Shown: positions 8,376 to 23,440 of the stretch, piece by piece
Position numbering within the stretch: the first letter of the stretch is position 1
Layout of the letters: each line of letters begins with the position of its first letter
Assembly: GCA_910586635.1 (NCBI GenBank)
Contig: CAJUJA010000004.1
Coordinates: 1-45,110 of the forward strand
Direction: 5' to 3'
Length of the DNA stretch: 45,110 nt
Origin: an uncultured Bacilli bacterium
GTDB lineage: Bacteria; Bacillota_I; Bacilli_A; RF39; UBA660
The notes under the pieces: model-generated
Told to the model about the DNA's origin: nothing
What the model saw: the letters and a program-made list of their open reading frames with translations, nothing else
Databases searched by the model: none
Program-made: the position numbers and the translations under genes

Positions 8376-8504
8376 AATCTCTCTCCTTTTTTACTATACA
8401 ATACAAAATAAAATATAAATTGTCAAGCAGTTTTTACGTTTTTAAAACATTTACAATCATAGGCTTGCTATGGTATACTATGCCTATATTTGGAGGTGAT
8501 TTCT

Positions 8505-9815
8505 ATGCCAATACCTGTTGTTGCCATTATTGGCAGACCTAATGTTGGAAAGAGTACATTATTTAATAAAATTATAGGCAAAAAAATTGCCATTACAAAA
8601 GATATACCTGGTGTTACAAGAGACAGAATTTATCAAGAAGCCATTTATCAGAACAAAAAATTTTTTTTAATTGATACTGGCGGAATTGATTTAGAAAAAG
8701 CAGATTTTAATACTGAAATTAAGGTTCAAGCAGAAATTGCTATTAAGGAAGCTGATATCCTAGTATTTATGGTAGATGGCAAAGAAGGACTTACTTCTAA
8801 TGATTTAACTGTACGTGATCTACTTAGAAAGACGAAGAAGAAAGTAATTGTTGCTATTAATAAGATAGATTTTAAAGATGCGAAGGAAAATTTATATGAT
8901 TTTTACGAGTTAGGATTTGATACTTATATTCCTATTAGTAGTATTCATAATACAGGTTTTGTAGAATTAATGGATGCTATCACAATGAATTTTTACCAAA
9001 TTGAAGAGGAAAAAACCGATCATCGTGTAAAATTTTCTATTATTGGAAGACCTAATGTTGGGAAAAGTTCCTTAATGAATGCCTTATTAAATGAAGAACG
9101 TGTTGTTGTTTCTAATATTGCGGGAACAACAAGGGATTCCATTGACTCTATTTTAAAATACCACGGGAAAGAGTATATTTTAATTGATACCGCTGGAATG
9201 AGAAAAAGAGGAAAAGTATTTGAGTCTATTGAAAAATATAGCCTGCTTAGATCTATGCGAGCAATTGACCGGAGCGATATTTGTTTAGTGGTTATTAATG
9301 CGGAAGAGGGAATTACTGAACACGATAAACATATTGCAGGATATGCAATAGAAAAAGGAAAAGGGTTAATCTTTGTAGTCAATAAATGGGACACAGTAAA
9401 AGATACTACCATTAATGATTATAGGAAACTAATGAAAGCTGAATTCCAATTTGCTACTTATGCCCCTATCGTCTTTTTATCTGCTCTTACCAAGAAAAGA
9501 ATTCATACTTTAATGCCTGAGGTTTTAAAAGTAGAGGAAAACATCAAAAGAGAGATTAAAACCAGCATTTTAAATGATGTCATTTTAGATGCTTATCAAT
9601 TAAATATCCCCCCTTCTTATAAGGGAAAAAGACTTAAAATTTATTTTTCTAGCCAAACTGGTACCAAGCCACCAAAATTCACTTTAAGGGTCAATAATAA
9701 AGGATTAGTCCATTTTTCTTATTATAGGTATCTAGAAAATAAATTACGAGAGAACTTTGATTTACAAGGAACTCCTATCATGATACAATTTAAGAATAGG
9801 AGTGGTGATGAATAA
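8505..9815 (+). CDS. der: ribosome-associated GTPase Der (EngA), double G-domain
   Basis: Two GRPNVGKS P-loops (IIGRPNVGKSTLFN and IIGRPNVGKSSLMN), DTGG/DTAG and NKID/NKWD motifs, and a KH-like C-terminus. ATG at 8505 follows a ggaggtga RBS (track start is TTG at 8490). Confidence 0.95.
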   Translation: MPIPVVAIIGRPNVGKSTLFNKIIGKKIAITKDIPGVTRDRIYQEAIYQNKKFFLIDTGGIDLEKADFNTEIKVQAEIAIKEADILVFMVDGKEGLTSNDLTVRDLLRKTKKKVIVAINKIDFKDAKENLYDFYELGFDTYIPISSIHNTGFVELMDAITMNFYQIEEEKTDHRVKFSIIGRPNVGKSSLMNALLNEERVVVSNIAGTTRDSIDSILKYHGKEYILIDTAGMRKRGKVFESIEKYSLLRSMRAIDRSDICLVVINAEEGITEHDKHIAGYAIEKGKGLIFVVNKWDTVKDTTINDYRKLMKAEFQFATYAPIVFLSALTKKRIHTLMPEVLKVEENIKREIKTSILNDVILDAYQLNIPPSYKGKRLKIYFSSQTGTKPPKFTLRVNNKGLVHFSYYRYLENKLRENFDLQGTPIMIQFKNRSGDE

Positions 9816-10065: not shown

Positions 10066-10308
10066 ATGTTTGGAGATAGCTTTTTTAAAAGAGTCGAGAA
10101 AAAAACCAATGTAGATAAAAATACTATTTTATCCCTTGCTAAAAAATTACAAAATTCTAATAATATGAAAGATGAAAAAGTACTAAGAGATATGGTGCAG
10201 GAGATTTCAACTTTAACAGGAAGAAAGGTTGAAAAAGAAAGGGAAGACAAGATTGTAAATGCAATTATGAAAGATAATGTCCCAAAAGATATTGATAAAA
10301 TGTTTTAA
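10066..10308 (+). CDS. stage VI sporulation protein F-like (SpoVIF/YjcC family)
   Basis: 80-aa product: FFKRVEKKTNVDKNTILSLAKKLQNSNNMKDEKVLRDMVQEISTLTGRKVEKEREDKIVNAIMKDNVPKDIDKM. It follows the pattern I recall for SpoVIF (FFK..EKKTGV...LA..LQ.....DE..R..I...S...G..V....ED.IV.AI....P.D). An imperfect hairpin lies at 10317-10338 downstream. Confidence 0.55.
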   Translation: MFGDSFFKRVEKKTNVDKNTILSLAKKLQNSNNMKDEKVLRDMVQEISTLTGRKVEKEREDKIVNAIMKDNVPKDIDKMF

Positions 10309-10351
10309 GAGGCTGTAATGAAATAAAGTAATTTCATTCAGTTCTTTTTAA

Positions 10352-10380
10352 TTTAAATATTAAAAAACGCTAGATATAAT
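10352..10380 (+). promoter_or_regulatory. candidate sigmaA-type promoter upstream of the tandem-HTH ORF
   Basis: TTTAAA (10352-10357), 17-nt spacer, TATAAT (10375-10380). AT-rich background makes chance matches common. Confidence 0.3.
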
Positions 10381-10450
10381 AGTTGGGCTACTCTACTTAG
10401 AATAAACTATAGCAATTGAACTTATAAAATATTATTATCTTAGATGATAA

Positions 10451-10903
10451 AATAATGATGGTGATGTCTATATTATTAAAAGGTTAAGGGAAACAAGAGA
10501 AGATAACGAGGAAACACAACACGATATAGCAGATATATTAGAAGTCAAAAGAGGCAATTATGTTTCTTGGGAATGTGGTAGTGATATAATACCGCTAAAA
10601 AAATTATTTCAGTTTGCAAATCATTATAATGCTTCTATTGATTACATTTTAAATTTATCCAATGATAATATAAAAATAGTTTCTAATGCTAATTTAGATA
10701 CATCTATCATTAGTAGAAATTTACGAGAAATAAGATACAACCAAAAAATATCGCAATCTAAAATAGCTGAAAGTATTGGCATTAATCAATCAACTTGGTG
10801 GGTCTATGAAAATGGAATAACATATATAACTACATTAAATTTAATGACACTGTGTAAAAAATATAACTATTCTATTGATTGGATTTTAAATAGAAAAATC
10901 TAA
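10451..10903 (+). CDS. tandem-HTH XRE-family regulator lacking a canonical start codon
   Basis: The frame is open from 10451 to TAA at 10901-10903. It encodes IIKRLRETREDNEETQHDIADILEVKRGNYVSWECGSDIIPLKKLFQFANHYNASIDYILNL and a second HTH, ISRNLREIRYNQKISQSKIAESIGINQSTWWVYENGITYITTLNLMTLCKKYNYSIDWILN. No in-frame ATG/GTG/TTG occurs until near the 3' end. GGTGA at 10460-10464 lies 7 nt before ATT at 10472. An ATG-rich mini-ORF (10455-10487) sits in another frame. Confidence 0.55.
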   Translation, partial: NNDGDVYIIKRLRETREDNEETQHDIADILEVKRGNYVSWECGSDIIPLKKLFQFANHYNASIDYILNLSNDNIKIVSNANLDTSIISRNLREIRYNQKISQSKIAESIGINQSTWWVYENGITYITTLNLMTLCKKYNYSIDWILNRKI

Positions 10904-11103
10904 CTATTAAAAATCAATTAATTTATTATCTCTTTCGATTTATATAAAGATTCATATTTAATAATATTATAGGATATACTATTATAAACAAAATTATTAA
11001 GATAAGTGATAATAGTCAAAATGCAAAAAAAACAAATATATTATCATTAATTTTTTATTACAAATATACTTTTTCTAAAGTGGCAGCTTCTATTTACATT
11101 AAT

Positions 11104-11138
11104 AAAAAAGCATCACATCACTTGTGATTACTTTTTTT
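11104..11138. terminator. bidirectional hairpin terminator between the convergent tandem-HTH gene and the Rhs operon
   Basis: ATCACA-tcact-TGTGAT (11112-11128) is flanked by an A-run on the left and TTTTTTT (11132-11138) on the right. Confidence 0.55.
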
Positions 11139-11216
11139 ATGGCACAGTATAAATCTGTGATTGACTTTCTTAAAGATATCAGAAATGCCATTTACTAAAA
11201 ATATGTCATTAGAAAT

Positions 11217-11681
11217 TTAGTCCTCTTCAACATAATACCACTTATTTTTTAATTTCCTTTTTTTATCTACGTAATGCCATTCATAATCATTATAATTATT
11301 GAAATACACTATATTCTGTGCAAAATTAATTTGAGAATTAAAGCATATTATTATATTATTCTTTTCTTTTTGAATATATTCTACATCAAACTTTTCTATG
11401 AAAGTAGCAATATTTTTATAGCTTTTTTTCAATTCATTAGCACTGATAACAGAGTGTTCTTTATTAATATCCAGTTCATATAGGGAATTGTTTTTTCTTA
11501 AAGTCATAGACTCATAATTTTGATTTAATAATTCATCTTTTAAACTATTAAATTCATTTTGATTCATATAATAATACATCATGATTTTAAAAGAATTTTC
11601 TTTTGCCGAAGGAAAAAATATAATAATTAACATAATACTATATATAACACCAAATAGAGTTAATAAAAACAGTTTTTTCAT
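11217..11681 (-). CDS. candidate cognate immunity protein of the Rhs toxin (small membrane-anchored protein)
   Basis: 154-aa ORF starting 19 nt after the Rhs stop, with a gaggtg RBS. N-terminal hydrophobic segment MKKLFLLTLFGVIYSIMLIIIFFPSA. No recognised family. The immunity assignment rests on position only. Confidence 0.5.
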   Translation of the reverse strand: MKKLFLLTLFGVIYSIMLIIIFFPSAKENSFKIMMYYYMNQNEFNSLKDELLNQNYESMTLRKNNSLYELDINKEHSVISANELKKSYKNIATFIEKFDVEYIQKEKNNIIICFNSQINFAQNIVYFNNYNDYEWHYVDKKRKLKNKWYYVEED

Positions 11682-11700
11682 AAATTAGCACCTCATATAA

Positions 11701-14700
11701 TTAAATTTGTTTTCGCCACATTTCTATTCCTTTTTTTATTGCCTTATGATCATTAGGATCATCACAATAATATGGACCTATTAAAATTTTAGGAGTAGCA
11801 CCACAATGAGCATATCCGCCACCCATATATAATAATTCATCAGAAAATCCCATAGCTTTGCCAACATATCCATAATGTATATTCCCAAAATCTTCTGCAT
11901 CAATCACTTCTCCATTGAATATAAATTTTCCATTATTTTTCAAATATGGAACATCAAACTCCTTCTCCCATATTTCTTCTCTTTTATAATCCCATTCCTG
12001 TTTATGATTAACCTGATTTTTAAAATAGTCTAATGCAGCAGCTTGACTCAAAGTTCTACTATAATAATTAGCTTCTAGAGCATTTTGGTGTAATACCTTA
12101 TTTAATTCAGCACTATAATTAGGCAAATTATTATTATTTTTTTTTGTTGTTTTTTTTGTTGCTTTTTTATTTTTGTTTTTACTAGTAATACTACTTACTA
12201 CCTTAGCTACTTTCTTTACAACTTTGTTAACAACAGATTTAACCTTTTTAAATATTGATTTTAAACTAGTTCCATTATTGTCATAATTATTAATAGGATT
12301 ATTACTTACATATGCATACAAATTACATGATATTATGTCCTGATTTGAACCTAATATAACATCTGGGCTAATAAATCTTCCCCATTTAGGATTATAGTAT
12401 CTATTGTTCAAATAATATAATCCTGTTTCCTCATCATAGTAATAACTTCTATATCTAATTGGGTTTATTTTACCTATATGATTATTGTCAGTAATTTCAA
12501 TACTATTTGAATCTTTTACTGAAATTAAGTCTCCCCAACTGTCATATTCATAAGTTACTATCTTTTCTCCATTTTCATTTAATATTCCTATTACATCATC
12601 TTGCATATTTTTTAAATAAAAATATATATTTTCATTATATTTAAATCCTATTAACCCATCAATATCATATATATAGTATATCATATCATTATTTCTTTTT
12701 TCAAATATAATATTATTATTTATAGTCTTATATTTTGTGCATATACCATTAACAACTTTAGATAACCTTACGCCATTTAAATCATATGCATAATTAACTA
12801 ATATACCATTATCCTCATCTATATATGACTTTAGAGAGTTTCCATCAATCCAAGTTAAACTAGCAGTCCCAATATTAATAGGATTACCAATAGCATCATA
12901 TGATATATTTTCTTCATCAAAGCAAGTCAATTGATCTTCCCAATTAATATTATTATATTGATAAACATGTGTTTTTATAATCGCATTATTACTATTATCA
13001 TATATAGTCTTATTTATAATATTTCCAGAAATATCATATGAATAATCTATATGAGTACCACTATCATAGTTATATTCACTTATTAATTCATTAAAATCAT
13101 CATACTCATAATGTTTTTGTAATTCATCATCATTAAAAATATCAGTTATATTATATAATTGGTCATAAATATATGTATTTTTGCTTCCATTAATTATAAA
13201 ATCTCTTATCATATTGCTTGTTCTTTTTCCATGTGTTAAATAATTAATTTTCAAATTCAAAATACTGCCAATCATTTTTTTATTCATTCTATTTAAGTCA
13301 TCATACTCATAATTAATAATCATATTGTCGTCAGATAACTCAATTACATTCTCATAGCTATCAAAGTTCATATCTTGGCTATGTTCTATATTATCGAATA
13401 TATATTTTTTCTGGACAATATTATTATTGGAATCATATTTATATTTGGTAATAAATTGTTCCTCTTGATACATATATAGTCTATTACTTTCGTCATAATA
13501 AAATTTAGTTTGTCCATAGTTAGATATAATCTTTGATATATTTCCATTATTATTATATTTATATAGATATACATTATCCATCTTCGTTATTTTACTTACT
13601 CTATCAAAATAATCATACTCGAAGTTAATAATATTGTCATTTCCATACAAAATTGATATCAAATTACCATTGTTAGATTCATAGTTATTCTGTAAAAATA
13701 CTATTTGTTCACCCAAAGAAGTTTCCACTATATTTAAAAAGTCATCATATTTTAATTTAAAAATTTTATTTCCCTGACAAATTTCAGAAATTAAATTTTT
13801 ATTATTGTAATGATATATTATTTTTCTTCCATTAAAATCACATGACACTAATTGTTGTCTATCATTATATTCATATGTAGTTATATTTCCCTTTGGATCT
13901 GTACTTGACTCTAATAATCCTGTATTTTGATTATAAGAATACAAGGTTGTATTAAGATTACTATCTGTAAAACTATTTATAAACTTATTATCTTTACTAT
14001 ATGTATATTCTATTTCAGTAAATATGCTTTCTTTTGTTTCAATATAAAACTCAGTTCCAGATTTATCACCATCAAGCACCTTCGTTGATAATAAATTACC
14101 ATTTGCAACAACATACTTTGATACAACCCCATTTGAAGTTATATCTTCATATACTATACTATAAGAATAATCATCATTCTTCAACAATTTAAATAAATTA
14201 TTTGTAGCACTATTTTCTAGAAAAATGTTTCCATCTCTATATGTCATAACATAATCTGGATTCATTAAATAACTGATTTTATAGAAATCTCCCTGTTTTT
14301 CAAATTTCCATAGTGTATTACTACAGTTATTCTCCTCCAAAAGAATATTATTTAACTCTGCTTTAAAGAAACTATTTGTTCCTTTTTCTCTAATTCTAAA
14401 TATACCTCCATCAATTTCTTTAACATATAATTTTGATGTTCTCATTTCAACTGGATTTCCAAAATCATTATATATCATTTTATTAGAAACACCATTATCT
14501 GCTATCATATTTATTACTCGATCTTTTTTAATTTTATCATATTCATATTTAAAACTATTATTTAACGAATTAGTAATACTTATTATTTTATTACTCTCAT
14601 CATATTTAAATGACTCACTATTCTTTGACTGATCTTCTATAGAAATTAAATTTCCTTTTTCGTCATAATTATATTCACCACTTGTGACATTTTTATAAAA

Positions 14701-17700
14701 AGATAAATTTGTTAAATATAACTTATTTGCATCCCCATTTTGAAATAAAGAAATTGTAATTGACTTAAAATCTTCTATTGCCACTTCTTTATTAATATAA
14801 TATTGCCATACATTTTCACTAGTCACTGGTAAAACATAAGAGGATATACAATGACCAAAATCGTCATTGTATGGTTCATAAAATATTGAAATATTAGATG
14901 CTGTATAAGGAGCATATTGTACTATTCCATCATACTTATACCAAAATGCCAGTGTATAAACATCTCCTTTTTTACCTTTTATATCAAATTTTTTATTAAT
15001 ATTTGTAGAATTTAGAGGATTCATTTCTATTCTCAATGCTTTATCATTATTATCATTTATACTAACAACTTTAATATAATCATTGGGATTTAATTCTTGC
15101 TCACCTCTACTGGCAGATAAACTCCATCCTGATAATCCCTGTGAAAAATTAGAATTTTCCAAGATATTATAATAGTTAGCAACTTCTCCAGTTTCTAATT
15201 GAATATCATCTACATAAATAATTCCAATATCTTGCAGTACAATCTTAATTTTCAAATCACTGGTAGCTTCTTCATCATAATATATTGTTGTATCAGTTCT
15301 TTCAAACTCATCAGACACCTTAATAGTTTCGGAGCTTTCTATTTCATTATCCTTACTATCAAAGTATGATAAAGAAATATATGCTGCAATATTACTTTTT
15401 ATATATGCGCTAAATGTATAGTATTGTCCTTTTTTAATAATAACATCCTGTTCAATACATCTGTTATTCGAGCTTGATTGTAATTTTAAACTTCTTAATC
15501 CTGAATGATAAAATTCTGTATCAAAATTTTTTGTTATTCCATCTTCAGATATAAAATAATCATTGTCAACTTCAAAACTTGTATTTTTTAATAAATTGTT
15601 TATATGCCTAATAGGAATCACATCTGAAACTATATCATTATTTTCATTATATTCTTCTTTAATCGAATATGCATTGGTAATATCATTAATAGATTTTAAA
15701 TTACTTTTTGATACCACATTACCATTAGTATTGTACGCAAGCAATTCTACTCTACCCTTATGATCTATAATGGTTGTACAACCTAATCCATATTCAAGTG
15801 TATAAAATTGCCCTATTTTATGATTCAATCCATATTGAATAACTTTTTTTACTCTATAAGGACTTTTTTCATAATACTCATAATTTATTTTTAAACCAGT
15901 AACATCGGTAATTCCAGAAATTACATTAGTTGATGCATATTCAAATAAAGTTTTCCCATTTTTTGTATTAATTGAAGTAAGAATGTCATTTTCATATTGT
16001 AATGTAACTATTTCACTCTGACTATTTATAATTATTTTATCTTCAGCATAGGTTATATTAATTATATTATCAAAACTATCAGTAATTTTATTAATTGAAT
16101 TATTTTGGTTTAATATAATGCTAATTTCATTTCCATTACTATCTTTGATTTTTGTTAAATGGTATATATCACCTATCTTAGTAAAGGTTTTTATTTCACC
16201 ATTACTACTTGTCATTATGTAGTCTAAGTTATCTTTTACAATACTTAATCCTAAACCATCTTCATCATAATAACTATTTTTATCTTGTGAAGAATCAAAT
16301 CCATATCCGCCAAGATTAAAATAATGAATAGTACCATCTTCATCAATATATTGTAGTCTATTTTCATCTTGCTCTTTTATATATTGTTCTAGATTTAACT
16401 TAAACCCTTTCCCAAAAAAAGTACTATTTTCTAAAATAACATCATTAGTATTATAAACCAATTCTAAACCTACAGGAATTGCTCCTCCTATTGTTTTCCC
16501 TAAACTAAATACTGAAGTAATATTACCATTATATGTATTAATATATGAAACCCCATCTGTAAAATTTTGCTTTTTATAATCCCAATAAGTCTCTAAACCA
16601 TTTTGATTACGATATGTTATAGCTGCAATTGGTTTAGGATTTCCTGATACTTGATTTTCTGTAGAAAAAAACATTGGAAAATCATCATCAACATATTCTT
16701 CATTACAAGATTTTATCATTATACCATAATTTGGAGTATCACGATACCACTTCTTCACTAAATTGGTTATATCAAAACCAGTGGTTCTATAACTTAAGGT
16801 AGAATTAACAATAGTTGATCTTTCAAATTCATATACAGATTCGACTCTATTATTGAATTTATCATTCATCACATTCCAAGTTGCTGTATTAACATCCCAA
16901 TCTGAAGTTACTTGATGAGTTTCCATTAAATAAACTTTTGAAGAAGTATTAGAAGTAGATTTAACATAAGGAACAACATATAATGCTGCATCAATAATTT
17001 CACTACCTGTTCCTATTTGTGGCAAAGTAAATTTGATAAGTGTCCTATTAATTCTATCTACACCGTTGATATGTTCTACTCCTGCTTTTAAATAATGTTT
17101 TGCATTTCTATTGTCATTATTATCACCTGGATAAATATATGTATCATATAAAGAAAGTTCATTGTTTTCATTCGTTATAGTTGGATCTATATAGACTGGA
17201 AATATTCTTTTTTCAGAACTCAACCACTCATCGTCCAAAACCAACGTCAAAATATATCCATCATCAAAACTATTAAGTAAATAATGAATACTATCATTTC
17301 TTATTTCATTCGAATCCATCATATATGGTTTTTCAATTTTAAATATAATTTGCCCCTTTTCATTCTTAGCTATTATCTCCCCATCTTCATTTGATAAAAT
17401 TAGATCAGTATCTAATTCAAAATTTAATTCTGAATAATTAGCGTTTTGTAATACAATTGTTTCCTTTACCTTATTTGATAAAGTTTGATATTCAACTTTA
17501 ATATCATCAGTAATATTATTATAAGTAATATTTTGCATTTTTTTAGAAATTTTTCTTTTTTCAGATTTAAGATTGCCTATACTTGATTGTCTAATCTTAA
17601 AATCTATATAATGATCATCCTTAGTCATCTTCATTAATGAATCTCTAAAATTTTCTTTAAATTCGACTTTATAATCATTATTTTTATTTCTTAATACACC

Positions 17701-17859
17701 ATTCTCACATACCAAAGTATTATCAATTTCTTCATACTTTCCATCTTTCAAATAATGAATATCTGTATCATATACTTCAGCAAGAATTGTACCATCTTCT
17801 CTTAGAAAATGTTTTTCACGAGGTTTTCTTTTTTCTATTAGTTCAATTTGCTTCATCAT
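11701..17859 (-). CDS. Rhs/YD-repeat polymorphic toxin, 2052 aa, no recognisable export signal
   Basis: Many YD repeats (YSYNQNTGLLESSTDPKGNITTYEYNDRQQLVS, YKYNNNGNISKI, YEYDDLNRMNKK, YSYDISGNIINK, ISYDAIGNPINIG). Rhs-associated core at aa ~1765-1865 (VTYEYDSWGDLISV...INPIRYRSYYYDEETGLYYLNNRYYNPKWGRFISPD...NLYAYVSNNPINNYDNNGT). A Lys-rich linker and a 187-aa C-terminal domain follow. Two CBM4_9/galactose-binding-like modules at aa ~753-892 and ~897-1057 (NLLKNTSFEVDNDYF; NILENSNFSQGLSGWSLS). A possible beta-trefoil lectin insert at aa ~1150-1278 (TLWKF, NLFKL). The N-terminus MMKQIELIEKRKPREKHFLRED is hydrophilic. Confidence 0.9.
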   Translation of the reverse strand: MMKQIELIEKRKPREKHFLREDGTILAEVYDTDIHYLKDGKYEEIDNTLVCENGVLRNKNNDYKVEFKENFRDSLMKMTKDDHYIDFKIRQSSIGNLKSEKRKISKKMQNITYNNITDDIKVEYQTLSNKVKETIVLQNANYSELNFELDTDLILSNEDGEIIAKNEKGQIIFKIEKPYMMDSNEIRNDSIHYLLNSFDDGYILTLVLDDEWLSSEKRIFPVYIDPTITNENNELSLYDTYIYPGDNNDNRNAKHYLKAGVEHINGVDRINRTLIKFTLPQIGTGSEIIDAALYVVPYVKSTSNTSSKVYLMETHQVTSDWDVNTATWNVMNDKFNNRVESVYEFERSTIVNSTLSYRTTGFDITNLVKKWYRDTPNYGIMIKSCNEEYVDDDFPMFFSTENQVSGNPKPIAAITYRNQNGLETYWDYKKQNFTDGVSYINTYNGNITSVFSLGKTIGGAIPVGLELVYNTNDVILENSTFFGKGFKLNLEQYIKEQDENRLQYIDEDGTIHYFNLGGYGFDSSQDKNSYYDEDGLGLSIVKDNLDYIMTSSNGEIKTFTKIGDIYHLTKIKDSNGNEISIILNQNNSINKITDSFDNIINITYAEDKIIINSQSEIVTLQYENDILTSINTKNGKTLFEYASTNVISGITDVTGLKINYEYYEKSPYRVKKVIQYGLNHKIGQFYTLEYGLGCTTIIDHKGRVELLAYNTNGNVVSKSNLKSINDITNAYSIKEEYNENNDIVSDVIPIRHINNLLKNTSFEVDNDYFISEDGITKNFDTEFYHSGLRSLKLQSSSNNRCIEQDVIIKKGQYYTFSAYIKSNIAAYISLSYFDSKDNEIESSETIKVSDEFERTDTTIYYDEEATSDLKIKIVLQDIGIIYVDDIQLETGEVANYYNILENSNFSQGLSGWSLSASRGEQELNPNDYIKVVSINDNNDKALRIEMNPLNSTNINKKFDIKGKKGDVYTLAFWYKYDGIVQYAPYTASNISIFYEPYNDDFGHCISSYVLPVTSENVWQYYINKEVAIEDFKSITISLFQNGDANKLYLTNLSFYKNVTSGEYNYDEKGNLISIEDQSKNSESFKYDESNKIISITNSLNNSFKYEYDKIKKDRVINMIADNGVSNKMIYNDFGNPVEMRTSKLYVKEIDGGIFRIREKGTNSFFKAELNNILLEENNCSNTLWKFEKQGDFYKISYLMNPDYVMTYRDGNIFLENSATNNLFKLLKNDDYSYSIVYEDITSNGVVSKYVVANGNLLSTKVLDGDKSGTEFYIETKESIFTEIEYTYSKDNKFINSFTDSNLNTTLYSYNQNTGLLESSTDPKGNITTYEYNDRQQLVSCDFNGRKIIYHYNNKNLISEICQGNKIFKLKYDDFLNIVETSLGEQIVFLQNNYESNNGNLISILYGNDNIINFEYDYFDRVSKITKMDNVYLYKYNNNGNISKIISNYGQTKFYYDESNRLYMYQEEQFITKYKYDSNNNIVQKKYIFDNIEHSQDMNFDSYENVIELSDDNMIINYEYDDLNRMNKKMIGSILNLKINYLTHGKRTSNMIRDFIINGSKNTYIYDQLYNITDIFNDDELQKHYEYDDFNELISEYNYDSGTHIDYSYDISGNIINKTIYDNSNNAIIKTHVYQYNNINWEDQLTCFDEENISYDAIGNPINIGTASLTWIDGNSLKSYIDEDNGILVNYAYDLNGVRLSKVVNGICTKYKTINNNIIFEKRNNDMIYYIYDIDGLIGFKYNENIYFYLKNMQDDVIGILNENGEKIVTYEYDSWGDLISVKDSNSIEITDNNHIGKINPIRYRSYYYDEETGLYYLNNRYYNPKWGRFISPDVILGSNQDIISCNLYAYVSNNPINNYDNNGTSLKSIFKKVKSVVNKVVKKVAKVVSSITSKNKNKKATKKTTKKNNNNLPNYSAELNKVLHQNALEANYYSRTLSQAAALDYFKNQVNHKQEWDYKREEIWEKEFDVPYLKNNGKFIFNGEVIDAEDFGNIHYGYVGKAMGFSDELLYMGGGYAHCGATPKILIGPYYCDDPNDHKAIKKGIEMWRKQI

Positions 17860-17868
17860 AATACTCTC

Positions 17869-18417
17869 CTAACTAATTCTTTTCCACATATAAACTGCAA
17901 GATATGGAGGCATATTATTGTGAGCACCATTTCCACCAGTTTTTTGACATCCAGAAATATCTCCTCCTATTATTGCATTTCCATTTCCATGAAATGGCAC
18001 ACCTTTTCCTGAATTTCCAGACCCATCATGGGAATGAAATATTAAGGCATGTGCATGGCTTGGCATTTCTGAAGTAGTAAGTTTATGTGTTTCCTCACCA
18101 CCAATTGATCCATTTTGGTAGGTATTTCCACATGCTAATAGAAATTTATCTTTAATTTGTTCCCAACTTCCTCCAAAAAGAAACCCTGGATCTTTTTCAT
18201 TTGTTGAAATATAAATAGAACCAACTGGATACATAGCATTCAATAATGTATCTGAAATTAAGGCATCCGTCTTCAAACTTTTCACTGCTAAGTTTCCTTC
18301 ACTATCTAATTCAAATTTATTATTTTTAGAAGTAACACAAGTTACATTTAAGTTGTTTACTTCTAAATTTGTATTTTCTCCTTCTTTTGTAAAAGCATTT
18401 GTTATATAATCATTCAT
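17869..18417 (-). CDS. phage tail-collar / baseplate-fibre-type protein
   Basis: YPVGSIYISTNEKDPGFLFGGSWEQIKDKFLLACG...GGEETHKLTTSEMPSHAH...GGNGAHNNMPPYLAVYMWKRIS matches the pattern of Firmicute phage tail-collar domain proteins (P.GSIY..., GG.W, LT..EMPSH.H, HNN.PPY..VY.WKR). Its TAG stop lies within the RBS (taggagag) of the Rhs gene 10 nt downstream. Confidence 0.6.
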   Translation of the reverse strand: MNDYITNAFTKEGENTNLEVNNLNVTCVTSKNNKFELDSEGNLAVKSLKTDALISDTLLNAMYPVGSIYISTNEKDPGFLFGGSWEQIKDKFLLACGNTYQNGSIGGEETHKLTTSEMPSHAHALIFHSHDGSGNSGKGVPFHGNGNAIIGGDISGCQKTGGNGAHNNMPPYLAVYMWKRIS

Positions 18418-18458
18418 TTTCTTCTCCTCTTTTCATTTATAATTTTGTATATAACTTT

Positions 18459-18487
18459 TTTATATTAAGTATTGTTAAGCAAGTAAA
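18459..18487 (-). promoter_or_regulatory. candidate sigmaA-type promoter for the tail-collar/Rhs/immunity operon
   Basis: Minus strand reads TTTACT (18487-18482), 17-nt spacer, TATAAA (18464-18459), about 40 nt upstream of the ATG at 18417. Weak evidence in AT-rich DNA. Confidence 0.3.
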
Positions 18488-18523
18488 TAACATCTAGCAT
18501 TTTATTAAACTTTCAAATCATAT

Positions 18524-18600
18524 TATCATCTCACTTTCTAATGACAATTTCTCATAGAAAGAAGAGATTTAACAGTATATGCAAAGTACCATTATTTTTC
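18524..18600 (-). repeat. copy A of a bipartite intergenic element shared by the two island operons
   Basis: Plus-strand block 1 is tatcatctcactttct (18524-18539). Block 2 is tttaacagtatatgcaaagtaccattatttttc (18568-18600). Compare copy B at 20329-20386. A degenerate extra block 2 lies at 18663-18683 (agtacgtcagacataccattc). Confidence 0.6.
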
Positions 18601-18687
18601 CTTACTTTATAAGGGGTTTATATGTAAATACTCCAACTTTTGACCAAAATACTATTCAAAATAGTACGTCAGACATACCATTCTAAG

Positions 18688-18710
18688 AAAAAAAGACTAA
18701 AATTTAGTCT
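18688..18710 (-). terminator. rho-independent terminator after the endolysin gene
   Basis: Minus strand reads AGACTAA-att-TTAGTCT followed by TTTTTTT, about 41 nt after the endolysin stop. It separates the lysis cassette from the Rhs operon. Confidence 0.65.
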
Positions 18711-18751
18711 AATTTACCAGTAAATATGTTATTAATCTAAAATTTACAATG

Positions 18752-19696
18752 TCATACTTCATACAAAAAGGTACTATATATCCATACATTATAACCATTG
18801 ATTTCTAATTTAGCAGAATTTGTTTTTGTATCTATGTTTTTTACCTCATAAATATTTTTATTAATTACGTAACTTTTACCTCCAACTACTTTATCATCCT
18901 GTCCTTGTGAATTTCCATATTGATCCACCTCTGTAAAATCGTCTAATGGTATCCAGTGATAATCTTTAGCTAGTTCTCTATAATAATCATTATAACTAAC
19001 ACCAGTTAATTTTGTATTACCAAAAAGATTAGTAGATAGTGGACTTTTTAAAATATCCACTTTAAAAATACCATCAAACTTAACCTTAGAACCAACATGA
19101 AGTATTTGGTCAACTGCTTCTACCTGTTTTACTGGAGTATCTTTTACCAATATATCTTTAGTAGTTCTCCAATTACCATCATTACCCTTTATAATGTTAG
19201 TATTATCTACAAAGTAACAATCATCTAAATCATACTCATTATTAAAATGATAATTACCATATTGATTTTTGAACCAAGAAGTATCAGAACTTTGACTAAC
19301 TTCTATATGGCAATGAACTCCAGTCATATTGGAATATCCTTTCCTTCCCATATTTCCTAACCGACTTCCTTGCTCTACAACCTGTCCAACTCTAACATCC
19401 ATAGTCTCATCATGAGCAGTCATAAATGTTGCATAATCAACTCTTCCATTGGCAAATCTTACTTTTTTAGTCGATTGCCACATAACTTGTCCTGTTTTAG
19501 GGTAGGTTTTTATGCATTTACAGGTACAGGAAGCATAATAGGGATATTTGACTCCTGCTACTTTTCCTCTTACGTCATTAGCAAGTATCCCCTTATGAGA
19601 ATAAGCACCTCCTGAGCCTTGTGATATATACATATCAGTGAAAGGACATAAAAAATTTTCAATTCCCCTATTACTAGACTTTTGACCTTTTATCAT
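18752..19696 (-). CDS. M23-family peptidoglycan endopeptidase with SH3-like C-terminal cell-wall-binding half (endolysin)
   Basis: NMTGVHCHIEVSQ fits the M23 s.TG.HLH.E motif, with an upstream SHKGILANDVRG...G metal-ligand region. The C-terminal half (VGSKVKFDGIFKVDIL...; KSYVINKNIYEVKNID...WIYSTFLYEV) looks like tandem SH3-type binding modules. ATGA start/stop overlap with the holin gene. Confidence 0.65.
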   Translation of the reverse strand: MIKGQKSSNRGIENFLCPFTDMYISQGSGGAYSHKGILANDVRGKVAGVKYPYYASCTCKCIKTYPKTGQVMWQSTKKVRFANGRVDYATFMTAHDETMDVRVGQVVEQGSRLGNMGRKGYSNMTGVHCHIEVSQSSDTSWFKNQYGNYHFNNEYDLDDCYFVDNTNIIKGNDGNWRTTKDILVKDTPVKQVEAVDQILHVGSKVKFDGIFKVDILKSPLSTNLFGNTKLTGVSYNDYYRELAKDYHWIPLDDFTEVDQYGNSQGQDDKVVGGKSYVINKNIYEVKNIDTKTNSAKLEINGYNVWIYSTFLYEV

Positions 19697-19932
19697 ATTA
19701 CTTCTACCCTTTTCTTATTTATATAATTAGCAATTAATGTTTTTACTGCTGATATTGCTGCAGCTAATCCTCCAATACAAGAACTCTTAAAAATTGCTCC
19801 ATTATAATCTATTGTATTAGATAAAACTACAGAAAATCCACCTAAAAAACCTTCTACAAATGTCCAAAAAACTCGTCTTACAATATCACTTTTCATAAAA
19901 AATTTAATTTTACTTAATATTTTCTTCATCAT
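19693..19932 (-). CDS. phage-type holin
   Basis: 79 aa, two hydrophobic helices (VFWTFVEGFLGGFSVVLS; SCIGGLAAAISAVKTLIA) and a charged C-terminus (NKKRVEVI). It lies immediately upstream of the endolysin gene and overlaps it. Confidence 0.65.
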   Translation of the reverse strand: MMKKILSKIKFFMKSDIVRRVFWTFVEGFLGGFSVVLSNTIDYNGAIFKSSCIGGLAAAISAVKTLIANYINKKRVEVI

Positions 19933-19940
19933 ATCACCTT

Positions 19941-20255
19941 CTAATTTAATCTGTCTTCTAATTTATCAATCCTATCATGAGCATGTTTTGTATTCTCTTC
20001 ACATCTTGCAACACGTTCACTTATATCATCAAACTTATTATTCAAATTTTTGACTTCATTTTTAAGTTCAACATTTCCAGTAATTACCAAATCAAGCTTA
20101 GTTGAGATTGTAGTATCTCTTTTCACACGTTCTTCTATAGCCTCTTTGTTATCATTATTCATATTATTTTTGTAAGTCAAAATAGCTATTAAGGATGTGA
20201 TGATAGTACAAAAGATAGATATAATTAGTGAATAATTTATACTCATTCTTATCAC
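19941..20255 (-). CDS. membrane-anchored coiled-coil lysis accessory protein (BhlA/UviB-like topology, XhlA-like coiled coil)
   Basis: N-terminal TM segment INYSLIISIFCTIITSLIAILTY, then a heptad-rich region ending AHDRIDKLEDRLN. First gene of the lysis cassette. GTG at 20255 or ATG at 20246 (MSINYS...) could be the start. Confidence 0.45.
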   Translation of the reverse strand: MIRMSINYSLIISIFCTIITSLIAILTYKNNMNNDNKEAIEERVKRDTTISTKLDLVITGNVELKNEVKNLNNKFDDISERVARCEENTKHAHDRIDKLEDRLN

Positions 20256-20328
20256 TTCTTTCTATATATTAAAATAGATTAATAACAATCATTATTTAAA
20301 TCATGTCATATCAATATCCCTCCATTTC

Positions 20329-20386
20329 TATCATCACTTTCTCACAATAATAGTTAAGTTTACAGTACGTGCGGCGTACCTTTTTC
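20329..20386 (-). repeat. copy B of the bipartite intergenic element (upstream of the lysis cassette)
   Basis: Plus-strand block 1 is tatcatcactttct (20329-20342). Block 2 is tttacagtacgtgcggcgtacctttttc (20359-20386). Block 2 contains the GC-rich palindrome GTACG-tgcgg-CGTAC, conspicuous in AT-rich DNA. Confidence 0.6.
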
Positions 20387-20408
20387 TAAATATAATTAAT
20401 TAGACTTC

Positions 20409-20927
20409 TTAACTTAAAGGATCAAAATGATTAACCTGCAGTATCTGATTGATATCATCAATTGGAGAATCATATAAATTTCTTAATATGTAACAGTATA
20501 GGCAACTCTTCTCATTATCATAACTTTCTATATGGAATCCTGCCATTTTAAGTAAATCGAAACTAAACTCTGGTGGTAATTTCATTCCAATACATAAAGC
20601 GATTATTGTTTCTAATGAATATCCTCTTTTTCGATTCGTTTCTATTTCCTTAATAGTTTGTGAACTAATATAGGACTTTTCTTCTAACTTTTCTCTTGTC
20701 ATTCCCATACTTTCTCTTAAATATCTTAATTTTCTTCTAAAATCGTATGGTAAATCATCACATATAATAGAAACCTTATTATAATAATTTTCAAATTTTT
20801 TAGGAGATTTTTTTATTTCATAAATTGATTCAAATTTTTTTATCTTTTGTCTCTTTTTCATTCTTATATTTGCATCAAAATTACTAACTACTTTGGATAA
20901 ACTGCTTTCTCTTTCCTTTTTATTCAT
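20409..20927 (-). CDS. XRE-family HTH transcriptional regulator
   Basis: FRRKLRYLRESMGMTREKLEEKSYISSQTIKEIETNRKRGYSLETIIALCIGMKL is an HTH_3 domain. The tail LLKMAGFHIES...INQILQVNHFDPLS is typical of a common Firmicute XRE subfamily. ATG at 20927 follows a ggggtg RBS (track start is GTG at 20936). Confidence 0.7.
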   Translation of the reverse strand: MNKKERESSLSKVVSNFDANIRMKKRQKIKKFESIYEIKKSPKKFENYYNKVSIICDDLPYDFRRKLRYLRESMGMTREKLEEKSYISSQTIKEIETNRKRGYSLETIIALCIGMKLPPEFSFDLLKMAGFHIESYDNEKSCLYCYILRNLYDSPIDDINQILQVNHFDPLS

Positions 20928-21076
20928 AATATACACCCCTGTTAATTAGCTATAATAGCAAAAAAAAAGAGACATGAATATCACCATAATTATACTATAA
21001 TTGATCGAGTATGTCCTATATAAGTATAGCTTGATTAGGCATAATACCGTTTATTAACACTCATCATTTAAACATA

Positions 21077-21385
21077 CTATCTATTTAAGGATTTATTTTT
21101 ATTTTTTCTTCTTTTTCTGTTTTTGTGATTATCTTTTACAATTTTATAATGTAGTAAATCTTCTATCCTGCAATTTAAAGCAAAACACATACGAGATAGC
21201 AAATCTAAATCTACTCTATATAATTTTCCTTCAACATATTTTTGAATAACACTCCAATTAATACCTGTTAATCTACTCAATCTATAGACATTCATATGCT
21301 TCTTTTTTAAAACTTCTTCAATTGTTAAAACAATTTCTCCATAGTTCTTATATATTTTTTCATATACATATCTCTCTTTTCCCAT
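21077..21385 (-). CDS. Cro/C1-type (HTH_26-like) transcriptional regulator with a basic tail
   Basis: MNVYRLSRLTGINWSVIQKYVEGKLYRVDLDLLSRMCFALNCRIEDLL fits the Cro/C1 HTH_26 pattern. The C-terminus is KNRKRRKNKNK. Confidence 0.65.
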   Translation of the reverse strand: MGKERYVYEKIYKNYGEIVLTIEEVLKKKHMNVYRLSRLTGINWSVIQKYVEGKLYRVDLDLLSRMCFALNCRIEDLLHYKIVKDNHKNRKRRKNKNKSLNR

Positions 21386-21672
21386 AAGTGCTTCCTTTCT
21401 TCAGAAAAATATCCAAAAAATAAGATAGTACTCCTAAATAAATTGAATACTACCACAAAAATTTTTAAACTAGATATTATTTTCACTTCACGTTAACATT
21501 ATATCATAGGTCAATTTTCGAGTAAATAATTGCAAAAAAGAAAATAAACTGCCAAACTTATATTCCTACTTTAAAATAAACAAATTGAGTAATATTATTG
21601 CAATCATAAAATTAGTCAAATGGTATGATATACTTCTCTATTTCTCATTTGAGAAGATTGGTTTCCATCTAT

Positions 21673-21849
21673 TCATACTAATTCCCGACTTTGGAGTTTG
21701 ATTAGATTTTTCTTCAGTAAATACTCTCTCTTGATTTTCTTGATATTTTTTTCACCACATGCTGTAAGTTGAGATATTTCTATTCCGCAGGCTACTGTAT
21801 ACACTAATAATCTCCTTCTATATGTTTTTAAAGTATCTGTTGTACTCAT
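21673..21849 (-). CDS. possible 58-aa ORF at the island edge (below the track threshold)
   Basis: ATG at 21849 gives MSTTDTLKTYRRRLLVYTVACGIEISQLTACGEKNIKKIKREYLLKKNLIKLQSRELV, then TGA at 21673-21675. No convincing RBS and no family recognised. Confidence 0.2.
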   Translation of the reverse strand: MSTTDTLKTYRRRLLVYTVACGIEISQLTACGEKNIKKIKREYLLKKNLIKLQSRELV

Positions 21850-21964
21850 GATAGGAGTCTACCTAGTAGTATTTATATTACCATATTTATTAAAAAATGC
21901 GAGCCCTTGTGTCATATCTTAAATGTTCATAACATAGGTTTAAATTGAATAAAGGAGAAGAGAT

Positions 21965-23440
21965 ATGGAAAAACAAGAAATTATTAAAAACATTGCTGCT
22001 AGAAGTGGTGGCGATATCTATCTTGGAGTAGTAGGAGCAGTAAGAACTGGAAAAAGTACTTTTATTAAACGAATGGTAGAGACCTTAATTGTTCCGAATA
22101 TCGAAGATGAATATGAAAGAAAAAGAGCACTTGACGAAATTCCTCAAAGTGCTGCAGGAAAAACCATTATGACAACAGAACCTAAATTTGTTCCTAATAA
22201 TGCAGCTACGATTCATATCGATGAAGTCAGTTGTAATATTAGATTAATTGACTGCGTTGGATATGTTATTGATAAAGCTATTGGAGCGGAAGATGAAAAT
22301 GGTCCAAGAATGGTAAAAACTCCTTGGTATAATGAAGAAATTCCTTTTATTGAGGCAGCAGAGGTTGGAACTGAAAAGGTAATTAAAGATCACTCTACCA
22401 TTGGAATTGTTGTAACTACTGATGGATCGATTGGAGAGTTTAATCGTAATGATTATCTAGAAGCAGAAAATAGAGTAATTAGTGAACTACAAGAAATCGG
22501 AAAACCCTTTATTGTCATCTTAAACTCTGTTCATCCTACCCTTCCAGAAACTGAAAGACTTGCTGATTCCCTAAAAGAGGAATATCATGTCCCAGTCATT
22601 CCTATTAGTGTAGAAGCAATGAATGAAAAAGATATGTATAATATCCTAAAAGAGGCTTTATATGAATTCCCGGTTTTGGAAGTAAAAGTGAATATGCCCG
22701 AATGGATTGCTATTTTAAATCATGATCATCCAGTAAAAAAGGAATATATTAATTGTATTAAAGAAAGTGTCGTGGAAGTAGATAAATTAAGGGATATTGA
22801 AACGATTACTAGCCACTTTATAGATCATGAAATGATTGAAAAAAGCTATTTATCAGAGGTAGATCCATCAACTGGAATTGTTACTGTAAATTTAATGGCT
22901 CCTGCATCTTTATATAATAAAACACTAACGGAAATCATTAATGTAGATGTAAAGAATAAGGCTGATTTACTTTCTCTATTTCAAGACTTTAATATCGCCA
23001 AAAAGGAATATGATCAAATTAAGTACGCCCTAAAAATGGTAAAACAAACTGGATACGGTGTTGCTACTCCATCAATTGAAGATATGAAATTAAATACTCC
23101 TGAGATTGTAAAACAGGGCCCTAGATATGGGGTCAAATTAAAAGCTGTAGCACCATCCATTCACATGATTCGAGTAGATGTTGAATCAACCTTTGAACCA
23201 ATTATTGGTAGCGAAGTTCAGAGTAAAGAGTTAATTGATTACTTAATGAAAGATCATAAAACAGAACCTACTAGTATTTGGAAAAGTGAGATTTTTGGTA
23301 GAAGTTTAGATGCCATCGTTCAAGAAGGAATCCAATCAAAAATAAATCTAATGCCGGATAATATCAGGTATAAATTACAGCAAACTCTATCTAAAGTTGT
23401 TAATAAGGGTTCTAATAATATGATTGCTATTGTAATATAA
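21965..23440 (+). CDS. spoIVA: stage IV sporulation protein A (spore coat morphogenetic ATPase)
   Basis: The N-terminus IAARSGGDIYLGVVGAVRTGKSTFIKRMVE...PQSAAGKTIMTTEPKFVP (Walker A GxxxxGKST) and the 491-aa length are characteristic of SpoIVA. aaaggagaag RBS. Confidence 0.93.
   Translation: MEKQEIIKNIAARSGGDIYLGVVGAVRTGKSTFIKRMVETLIVPNIEDEYERKRALDEIPQSAAGKTIMTTEPKFVPNNAATIHIDEVSCNIRLIDCVGYVIDKAIGAEDENGPRMVKTPWYNEEIPFIEAAEVGTEKVIKDHSTIGIVVTTDGSIGEFNRNDYLEAENRVISELQEIGKPFIVILNSVHPTLPETERLADSLKEEYHVPVIPISVEAMNEKDMYNILKEALYEFPVLEVKVNMPEWIAILNHDHPVKKEYINCIKESVVEVDKLRDIETITSHFIDHEMIEKSYLSEVDPSTGIVTVNLMAPASLYNKTLTEIINVDVKNKADLLSLFQDFNIAKKEYDQIKYALKMVKQTGYGVATPSIEDMKLNTPEIVKQGPRYGVKLKAVAPSIHMIRVDVESTFEPIIGSEVQSKELIDYLMKDHKTEPTSIWKSEIFGRSLDAIVQEGIQSKINLMPDNIRYKLQQTLSKVVNKGSNNMIAIVI

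Follow-up and report, generated by a model that had tools for sequence, protein, structure and literature searches.

Why should the same sequence stand before the lysis genes and before the toxin genes of one genomic island? The question is raised by a stretch of 45,110 nucleotides (nt) from an uncultured Bacilli bacterium (contig CAJUJA010000004.1 of GenBank assembly GCA_910586635.1; the whole stretch is named here 'the window'), in which an element recurs upstream of a lysis operon and of an operon encoding an Rhs toxin. An original prediction, made from the letters of the window, had read this repeat as an operator, promoter or leader shared by the two operons, co-regulating them and bound by one of the helix-turn-helix (HTH) proteins of the island. 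Comparison with other genomes leaves virtually no doubt that the element is a conserved, shared cis-regulatory module. As a whole, the comparison is probably best explained by a shared promoter-operator switched by a 175-amino-acid (aa) XRE-type protein, which would couple toxin and lysis, and it thereby supports the co-regulation that had been proposed.

Conservation of the element in gut Bacilli

Pattern searches recovered all the strings quoted in the original prediction, each where it had placed them. A formal pairwise Smith-Waterman alignment of the two intergenic regions does not score significantly above shuffled sequences (p ~0.1), so that other genomes were needed to test the repeat. 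The search covered 185,579 species, each represented by one genome, and used the Gp10_C-domain protein of the toxin operon, the 175-aa protein and a degenerate DNA pattern of the element; for a metagenome collection the DNA pattern was the sole query. The same cassette occurs in 13 lineages of uncultured gut Bacilli, with proteins 46-83% identical in amino-acid sequence to those of the window. Its order is the XRE gene, then the genes of a membrane protein, a holin and an M23 endolysin, then the Gp10_C gene and the Rhs gene. All full cassettes carry the element before the lysis genes (copy B) and again before the Gp10_C-Rhs pair (copy A), together with a distal dyad (D) after the M23 gene. The two copies in the window are paralogous cis-regulatory modules of one apparently mobile cassette.

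The element is a module of ~75-80 nt, over which 25 A and B copies from the 13 lineages align without gaps. Counted from the G of the left GTAC as index 0, the copies share the consensus aaAATrGTACnT.....rTACTGT - 18 nt unconserved - (tAt)GAGAAAnT - 6 nt - AGAAAnnGAG(G)TGAT. Read on the coding strand, it consists of a 15-17-bp dyad (GGTACnT-N3-nnRTAC), TGT, an 18-nt spacer, a GAGAAAnT box, the sequence AGAAAnGGAGGTGAT and, usually, a mini open reading frame (mini-ORF). The columns GTAC, TACT-T and A-A-T are invariant, and the 18-nt spacer is fixed in length and free in sequence across the 25 copies. The parts lie in the window as follows.

20364-20380, minus strand: copy B dyad GGTACGCCGCACGTACT, candidate operator; the GTAC/TAC columns are invariant in 25 copies
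20360-20365, minus strand: copy B weak -35, cTGTAA; the right dyad arm runs into TGT
20336-20343, minus strand: copy B invariant box GAGAAAGT; the 18-nt spacer follows TACTGT in all copies
20336-20341, minus strand: copy B predicted -10 hexamer GAAAGT, with TG before it at 20343-20344
20316-20329, minus strand: copy B extended Shine-Dalgarno (SD) sequence AGAAATGGAGGGAT; duplex with the 16S 3' tail, -14.9 kcal/mol
20296-20309, minus strand: copy B mini-ORFs ATGACATGA (MT*) and, overlapping it, ATGATTTAA (MI*)
18574-18590, minus strand: copy A dyad GGTACTTTGCATATACT, candidate operator, with a degenerate right half (ATAC), then TGTTAA
18546-18553, minus strand: copy A invariant box GAGAAATT
18546-18551, minus strand: copy A predicted -10 hexamer GAAATT, preceded by TG
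18524-18539, minus strand: copy A extended SD AGAAAGTGAGATGATA, block 1 of the original prediction; duplex with the 16S 3' tail, -12.3 kcal/mol
18513-18521, minus strand: copy A mini-ORF ATGATTTGA (MI*)
18657-18682 (core 18663-18679), minus strand: distal dyad D aatGGTATGTCTGACGTACTattttg, 89 nt upstream of dyad A

The alignment also sets the register of the repeat, which had been described as two blocks with a third, degenerate one. Homology is genuine for block 2 (18568-18600 and 20359-20386) and for the third block (18663-18683). Block 1 does fall in a conserved region, but its pairing joined non-homologous positions of copies A and B, 13 nt out of register: AGAAAGTGAGATGATA of copy A (18539 to 18524) matches AGAAATGGAGGGATAT of copy B (20329 to 20314), and the string taken for block 1 in copy B, AGAAAGTGATGATA (20342 to 20329), matches the copy A box GAGAAATTGTCATT, 13 nt upstream. 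The near-identity first noticed is due to an internal repeat (GAGAAAnTG / AGAAAnnGAG). Rather than part of an operator, as had been proposed, block 1 is an extended SD with a mini-ORF, that is, a leader feature. The GC-rich palindrome singled out in copy B likewise exists as a dyad, but it is not special, being the best-symmetrised form of the dyad present in all copies.

A position weight matrix (PWM) built from 21 copies of other genomes, the window copies being left out, gives 66.4 bits for copy B and 54.8 bits for copy A, and the next best site on both strands of the 45 kb scores -29.3. The exact degenerate pattern matches 12 times in the 185,579 species genomes (596 Gb) and 5 times in the metagenome collection, every match falling in the same cassette, and has 0 matches in 2.9 million viral contigs. 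The element is absent from Gp10_C-Rhs loci without the XRE and lysis genes (L001, L003, L007-L010 and others, in our numbering of loci). This is not the behaviour of a generic AT-rich repeat, the finding that would have spoken against the prediction: the pattern is confined to the cassette, and the PWM finds the two copies in the window and no more.

In register, the two window copies are 58% identical. Identity between genomes reaches 75% in the core boxes and falls to 36% in the downstream leader. Identity between A and B copies is the same within a genome (0.62) as between genomes (0.62) and lower than that of A with A or B with B (0.66); the duplication is therefore old, and both copies have been kept by selection and not by gene conversion. 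These values also bear on the reading of the repeats as non-functional scars of recombination or duplication from insertion of the lysis cassette, or as a chance similarity of AT-rich DNA. The copies are indeed direct repeats around the lysis genes, and the Smith-Waterman test of the pair by itself is not significant, but boxes are conserved where spacers and flanks are not, and the equal A-B identity within and between genomes does not fit such an origin. Features specific to A and to B are moreover kept across 12 genomes, variant cassettes with one promoter copy exist, and the PWM and collection scans rule out chance, so that scars or coincidence appear extremely improbable beside a conserved module.

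A candidate operator of the 175-aa protein

The 175-aa XRE-type protein is the only regulator found in every cassette. One locus, L091, retains its gene and the element alone of the cassette, and the sequence upstream of the gene varies by genome, indicating that the cassette begins with this gene. Comparison thus gives substance to the proposal that one of the island HTH proteins binds the element, and points to the 175-aa protein as the candidate. The 102-aa HTH protein was considered as a general binder and set aside: its homologue is found in 2 element-bearing genomes only (the window and L093), and in L099, which is without the element.

The 175-aa protein matches Pfam HTH_3 (1.4e-07), and its AF2 model has a pLDDT of 87. 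In Foldseek searches only the HTH core of the model matches solved structures (Stl, DdrO, ClgR, SinR, C.AhdI, C.BclI and C.Esp1396I); a fold search with the whole model returned no informative match for the flanking helices. The family is very small: a set of 5.8 billion proteins yields 44 clusters of it, with identities of 54% or more. Over residues 41-165 the protein matches residues 497-620, in the C-terminal part of phrog_4031, with an E value of 2.8e-23.

The recognition helix of the protein reads S89-Q90-T91-I-K-E-I-E. Position 90 aligns with a base-contacting glutamine of the 434 repressor helix. Usual contact preferences pair an amide side chain with A:T and arginine or lysine with G:C. 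Across the family the helix covaries with the half-site of the dyad, over few independent events.

Q at position 90, 40 of 44 clusters: half-site GTAC
N at position 90, 3 clusters (L108, L111): half-site GTAC
R at position 90, protein P0035 (L105-L107): GGAC/GTCC, three half-sites
K at position 90, phage-type proteins: GGAC/GTCC
K at position 91 (T91K), L129 and L130: GGACAC..GTGTCC

This covariation and the invariable synteny make the 175-aa protein the probable binder, and the comparison argues that the dyad is very likely its operator.

Distant relatives with the same dyad geometry

phrog_4031, a protein of ~626 aa and unknown function, carries a C-terminal HTH domain homologous to the 175-aa protein. 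Homologues of this type, 31-37% identical, come both from viral contigs and from the genomes of Lachnospiraceae, Oscillospiraceae, Bacillus, Sporosarcina, Anaerocolumna and Robinsoniella. Each is accompanied by one or two dyads GGACAT-N3-ATGTCC of the same 15-bp geometry, starting 25-50 nt past the stop codon. From the second dyad to a -10 hexamer (TATACT, TATAAA, TACAAT, TACCAT, TAAAAT, TAGAAT or TATAAT) the distance is exactly 23 nt in 10 distant lineages (22 in L129 and L130), and no TTGACA-like -35 is seen in the distant lineages with a second dyad (n=10). Together, phrog_4031 and the dyads look like an undescribed activator-operator system of phage early regions. The gene and its dyads are carried by loci L113-L118 and L127-L140, which come from viral contigs and diverse Firmicute genomes; in L113 a small protein that weakly matches Sigma70_r4 is encoded downstream of the second dyad.

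The window protein thus shares with phrog_4031 the domain, the geometry of dyads placed after the gene and the 23 nt to the -10. It differs in being without the ~480-aa N-terminal part, in reading GTAC rather than GGAC, and in having its gene in a toxin/lysis cassette instead of a phage early region. A broader account can be offered tentatively, with somewhat less than even confidence: the C-terminal domain of phrog_4031 may define a widespread, undescribed class of Firmicute activators with a readable code (at position 90, Q or N for T and K or R for G) and a fixed promoter (15-bp dyad, 23 nt, -10). Gut Bacilli would have domesticated a truncated member of this class, making it the master switch of a 'lyse and release' cassette for an Rhs toxin, type-10-like but Gram-positive, with a ribosome-loading leader built into its promoters.

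Predicted promoter geometry

Within the window family, the hexamer GAAAnT (index 38-43) occupies the same offset from the dyad as the -10 of the distant homologues, and a -10 at this conserved offset explains the strictly fixed length of the 18-nt spacer. The second position (A) and the sixth (T) of the hexamer are invariant, and TG stands at -15/-14 in 21 of 25 copies; as a -10 the match is weak. At the -35 position the cassette copies have cTGTwA and the distant homologues unrelated sequences, a -35 that is weak or absent. In all 25 copies, as in the 10 distant lineages, 31 nt separate the dyad centre from the predicted -10 downstream of it, which corresponds to about -43 if transcription starts 7 nt past the hexamer, a predicted start with which one RNA contig discussed below (from set X29) disagrees. 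From about this position, lambda CI at PRM and the controller proteins of restriction-modification systems activate RNA polymerase (class II activation).

The following mechanism is consistent with these features. The 175-aa XRE-family protein would bind the dyad (A/T)rGTACnT-N3-nn(G/A)TAC as a dimer. The right dyad arm would run into a poor -35 (cTGTwA), and (T)GAGAAAnT would serve as an extended but weak -10; a dyad centre at about -43, overlapping the poor -35, would then have the geometry of class II activation. Transcription would start ~7 nt after the hexamer, near 18539 in copy A and near 20329 in copy B, and the transcript would open with AGAAAnGGAGGTGAT, usually followed after 8-9 nt by a mini-ORF of 2-5 codons. 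By parking a ribosome at the 5' end, the leader would probably act as an mRNA stabiliser of the STAB-SD kind or as a leader. The holin and endolysin genes and the Rhs toxin, which seems to be without a signal peptide, would be expressed together because both promoters are proposed to need the same protein. Dyad D may be an operator that doubles as the terminator between the operons, and may help to load the weaker proximal site. The comparisons show conservation, geometry, confinement to the cassette, co-occurrence with the regulator, covariation of helix and half-site, and complementarity to 16S rRNA; that the protein binds, that it activates, where transcription starts and that the leader stabilises the mRNA are inferred from them.

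Three other promoter readings were tried and discarded. A match of the sigma-70 scan, TTGTCA-16-TAATAT at 18547-18520, is unconserved in other copies and would leave the SD and mini-ORF off the transcript. A sigma-54 reading of TGGTAC...GC has the wrong spacing, and its GC is unconserved (by eye). A -10 in the A-rich tract just upstream of the dyad (aaAAT) was discounted because the tract belongs to the extended palindrome and recurs at the distal site, which is no promoter.

Lacking a -35 and having a weak -10, such promoters would be expected to show hardly any activity on their own, which favours activation over repression; on sequence grounds, the geometry is fairly probably that of an activator-dependent promoter. 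The same operator and promoter could instead be held by the 175-aa protein as a CI/Stl-like repressor occluding the -35 of both promoters, expression following its inactivation or being driven by an alternative sigma factor of the host that reads GAGAAAnT. This arrangement has several points in its favour: Stl, DdrO and SinR, among the closest solved HTH domains, are repressors; a perfect distal site and a weaker proximal one 88-91 bp apart recall cooperative repressor operators; and the box partly resembles the Bacillus sigma-F -10 consensus (GgnrAnAnTw). It also accords with X29, a single thin, unstranded mouse-gut metatranscriptome with contigs of very low depth, which is the only usable public RNA set found for the window species: X29 covers lysis and Rhs genes and leaves the regulator gene uncovered. 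However, promoters without a -35 and with a poor -10 leave little to repress, a dyad centre at -43 conserved family-wide beside a good -10 and no -35 is the signature of class II activation, and the controller proteins and ClgR, also among the structural matches, are activators. A repressor accordingly seems unlikely, and an activator remains the preferred reading of the 175-aa protein.

Dyad D is the most symmetric of the dyads, and its A-tract and T-run also give it the shape of an intrinsic terminator. In orthologues, D has the sequence ATGGTACnTnnnAnGTACCAT with a T-run after it, and its distance from dyad A stays within 88-91 nt. The hairpin AAAATGGTAC..GTACCATTTT is found 3' of the M23 gene in 10 genomes and is terminator-like (a stable hairpin with a T-run); in the window, D has 2 wobble pairs and a short T-run and lies downstream of a first canonical terminator (18687-18711). 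Its arm reads GTACCAT, compared with GTACTGT in A and B.

A probable ribosome-loading leader

The consensus of block 1, AGAAAnGGAGGTGAT, is a near-full complement of the 3' tail of Firmicute 16S ribosomal RNA. The predicted duplex ranges from -11.7 to -19.0 kcal/mol in 25 of 25 copies, compared with about -1 to -5 elsewhere in the region. An ATG follows the SD after 8-9 nt (index 67-70) in 18 of the 25 copies, against an ATG background of 0.018 per position, and all 12 A-type copies have a start codon after the SD (one of them GTG). In most copies this start opens an ORF of 2-5 codons (MI*, MIT*, MIK*, MSV*, MTFT* and others). The SD lies 45-120 nt upstream of the main start codon, except in copy B of locus L011 (L011_B), where it serves the first real gene. 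The SD/mini-ORF part acts on RNA; for its role as a stabiliser the chances are about even.

Such a leader raises the question of whether the whole module might act mainly as RNA. Transcription would then start upstream of the dyad, and a 5'-terminal hairpin (AAUGGUAC...GUACUGU), together with the SD and mini-ORF, would stabilise or attenuate the mRNA with no protein operator involved. The SD/mini-ORF certainly works at the RNA level, the distal dyads are terminator-like with a T-run, CTGT in place of the distal CCAT keeps two G.U pairs (6 pairs; U.G in 23 of 25 copies, G.U or A-U in 24 of 25), and an X29 contig reaching 20379 shows that RNA or cDNA across the whole of copy B exists. Against this, RNAalifold on the 25 copies predicts only a weak 6-bp hairpin of -1.25 kcal/mol with 0 compensatory pairs; the loop-closing pair is a C.A mismatch (ATAC) in 9 of 25 copies, and L108 and L111 have a central U.U. 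The fixed 18-nt spacer and the invariant GAGAAAnT box find no explanation in RNA, L011_B and other B dyads abut the T-run of an upstream terminator, leaving no room for a promoter, and in distant homologues the dyad is followed by a canonical -10 at a distance of exactly 23 nt. A search of Rfam over 17800-21700, with E up to 10, likewise gave no relevant match. A module working chiefly as an RNA leader is thus a minor possibility, and a DNA operator followed by an RNA leader is the reading retained here.

Several observations nevertheless weigh against a promoter-operator switched by the 175-aa protein. The first, and the main one that the model leaves unexplained, is that the X29 contig spans 20129-20379, all of copy B to the outer edge of the dyad, 50 nt upstream of the predicted start. 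It could reflect an upstream start, read-through or antisense RNA; on the plus strand the copy B dyad and its T-run form a predicted terminator, which makes an antisense or read-through origin possible. The change of the dyad arm from GTACCAT to GTACTGT keeps RNA pairing through G.U, and an RNA hairpin role for the dyad is possible. The -10 of the cassette, GAAAnT, departs widely from the consensus, and conservation at G36, A37 and G38 exceeds what a sigma-A -10 would require; another sigma factor or a second protein contact at the GAGAAAnT box is possible. The covariation of helix and half-site comes from few events (R once, K once deep in the tree and T91K once), and the preference for activation over repression is drawn from geometry alone.

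Of the 12 X29 contigs that map to a 20-kb stretch, 7 fall on the island (17547-20379 and 21511-21682), with coverage of the lysis genes, of the Rhs gene in its 5' part and of sequence upstream of the 102-aa HTH gene; by this share of contigs, the cassette seems more expressed in vivo than its housekeeping neighbours. Runs X25-X28 and X31-X34 behave like DNA. In runs from the species of L005 the regulator gene is covered and the elements are uncovered.

Relation to known systems

The proposed promoter would work like that of lambda CI at OR2/PRM or of the controller proteins C.AhdI, C.BclI and C.Esp1396I, in which a small dimer of XRE fold binds a dyad of ~15-17 bp near -42/-43 over a poor -35, with two sites of unequal strength acting jointly. 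The three controller proteins superpose on the HTH domain of the 175-aa protein with TM scores of ~0.7-0.8 on the target. Identity to these proteins is, however, ~25%, the 175-aa protein has extra N- and C-terminal helices without a structural match, the window operator differs in sequence, and the regulator serves two downstream operons and not its own gene.

In function the arrangement resembles that of RoeA of Yersinia entomophaga, encoded next to a holin, which turns on a lysis cassette and Tc toxins through a shared promoter motif (PMC10847048). There, as is proposed for the window, a regulator whose gene lies directly upstream of a holin gene (RoeA, with ChiR of Serratia; type 10 secretion) keeps a lysis cassette of phage origin in step with large Rhs-containing toxins (PMC10847048). 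RoeA differs in belonging to Gram-negative bacteria, with a spanin-containing cassette, an unrelated type of regulator and Tc toxins, whereas the window has a sporulating gut Bacillota, an XRE HTH protein, an M23-type endolysin and a single-chain Rhs protein with Ntox44 and an immunity gene. The same motif stands before lysis and toxin genes in the window, with the regulator adjacent, as in toxin release by a lysis cassette, suggesting type-10-like release of the toxin through lysis.

TcdR of Clostridioides difficile is an alternative sigma factor. In the PaLoc of that Gram-positive organism this one factor reads similar promoters of tcdA, tcdB and tcdE, that is, of toxins and a holin (described in part in PMC12485765). 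Unlike the 175-aa protein, TcdR is not an operator-binding HTH dimer, and the PaLoc is without the dyad and the SD/mini-ORF leader. The leader itself resembles the STAB-SD of Bacillus thuringiensis cry3A and the ermC and aprE leaders, in which an SD of the GAAAGGAGG type lies far upstream of the real start with extensive 16S pairing; it differs in that the window SD is mostly followed by a start codon and an ORF of 2-5 codons.

By descent, the system belongs to none of the RoeA, TcdR, CI/C-protein or STAB-SD systems, and its regulator falls in an uncharacterised family, that of the phrog_4031 C-terminal domain. It is a regulatory device of a known kind attached to an undescribed toxin-release cassette; in the literature library searched, no publication on a Gram-positive cassette of Rhs plus lysis genes was found. 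If the model is correct, a cassette of gut commensals would couple self-lysis to release of a 2052-aa Rhs toxin by means of one regulator and two near-identical promoters, and a mouse-gut bacterium would offer a Gram-positive parallel to the type 10 systems of Yersinia and Serratia with their 'soldier cells'. For a phage family of unknown function, the model would supply a defined operator and a function that can be tested. Operator, activator-dependent core promoter and strong ribosome-loading leader would together form a compact, portable module; its specificity appears switchable by a single residue, so that it is readily tested and might serve as a genetic part for poorly tractable gut Bacillota.

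Island context and cassette variants

The window is AT-rich (~27% GC) and derives from a sporulating gut Bacillota, with spoIVA at 21965-23440, spoVIF at 10066-10308 and der at 8490-9815. Its DNA is matched in mouse-gut metagenomes and in isolates, for which public sequencing runs exist. The island (10309-21964) is flanked by spoVIF/der and spoIVA; between spoVIF and spoIVA it lies throughout on the minus strand. Its genes and operons are the following.

21077-21385, minus strand: 102-aa HTH_26 protein
20409-20936, minus strand: 175-aa XRE-type HTH protein (Pfam HTH_3), proposed cognate regulator
19941-20255, minus strand: 104-aa membrane (transmembrane)/coiled-coil protein, phrog_1863; lysis operon
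19693-19932, minus strand: 79-aa holin-like protein; lysis operon
18752-19696, minus strand: 314-aa M23 peptidase/endolysin; lysis operon
18752-20255, minus strand: lysis operon, attributed to copy B
18687-18711, minus strand: intrinsic terminator of the lysis operon TAGACTAAAttTTTAGTCTTTTTTT, read from the sequence; same hairpin in L004 and L006
17869-18417, minus strand: 182-aa Gp10_C-domain protein, tail-protein-like; toxin operon
11701-17859, minus strand: 2052-aa Rhs protein with C-terminal Ntox44 toxin domain; toxin operon
11217-11681, minus strand: 154-aa putative immunity protein; toxin operon
11217-18417, minus strand: toxin operon, attributed to copy A

The XRE-type gene probably starts at 20927 (20409-20927), giving a protein of 172 aa. 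Inspection of the Rhs N terminus by eye, with no predictor run, revealed no signal peptide. The 154-aa protein encoded downstream of the Rhs gene has a hydrophobic N-terminal segment and no Pfam match, and is probably the immunity protein of the toxin; an Rhs protein with Ntox44 and an immunity gene suggests interbacterial use.

Among the other genomes the contexts of the cassette differ, with no integrase adjoining in the stretches examined, and from these differing contexts the cassette appears mobile. Variant cassettes in L105-L108 have no A copy: a D-type dyad follows the regulator gene, one promoter-type copy lies 157-170 nt downstream, and after this single promoter the lysis genes, Gp10_C and Rhs form one unit. 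L111, whose contig ends at a B-type copy, has the same D-then-B layout 3' of the regulator gene. In these variants (L105-L108 and L111) the D-type site is 157-173 nt from the promoter copy. The M23 and Gp10_C genes of L105-L107 are in fragments (for example 114 + 206 aa and 88 + 60 aa). At 6252-6850 of L091, the regulator gene and a B-type element remain with no lysis or toxin genes, in place of which there is a tandem-HTH gene in convergent orientation.

The closest Gp10_C protein (67% identity) belongs to a single metagenome-assembled genome (L099/L001, contig CAJUHO010000001.1) in which the Rhs operon is without the lysis cassette or the element. Some 40 kb from this operon, in L099, a 102-aa-type HTH gene adjoins a truncated gene of the 175-aa type with no dyads, which looks like a decayed remnant of the switch. 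The Gp10_C gene directly precedes the Rhs gene in every related locus with downstream sequence compared (L001-L018). It is present in 2-3 copies in L012, L015 and L017-L019, and L021 and L022 have 8-9 tandem Gp10_C paralogues with no Rhs match within the stretch fetched. The arrangement suggests an adaptor or targeting role of the Gp10_C protein for the Rhs toxin. Two deep DNA runs (X25 and X28) show assembly breaks at 18353-18387 of the window, where a 35-nt contig of X25 is ~1.6-fold deeper, suggesting that the genome or community has further copies of a short stretch at the 5' end of the Gp10_C gene, perhaps within other Rhs loci.

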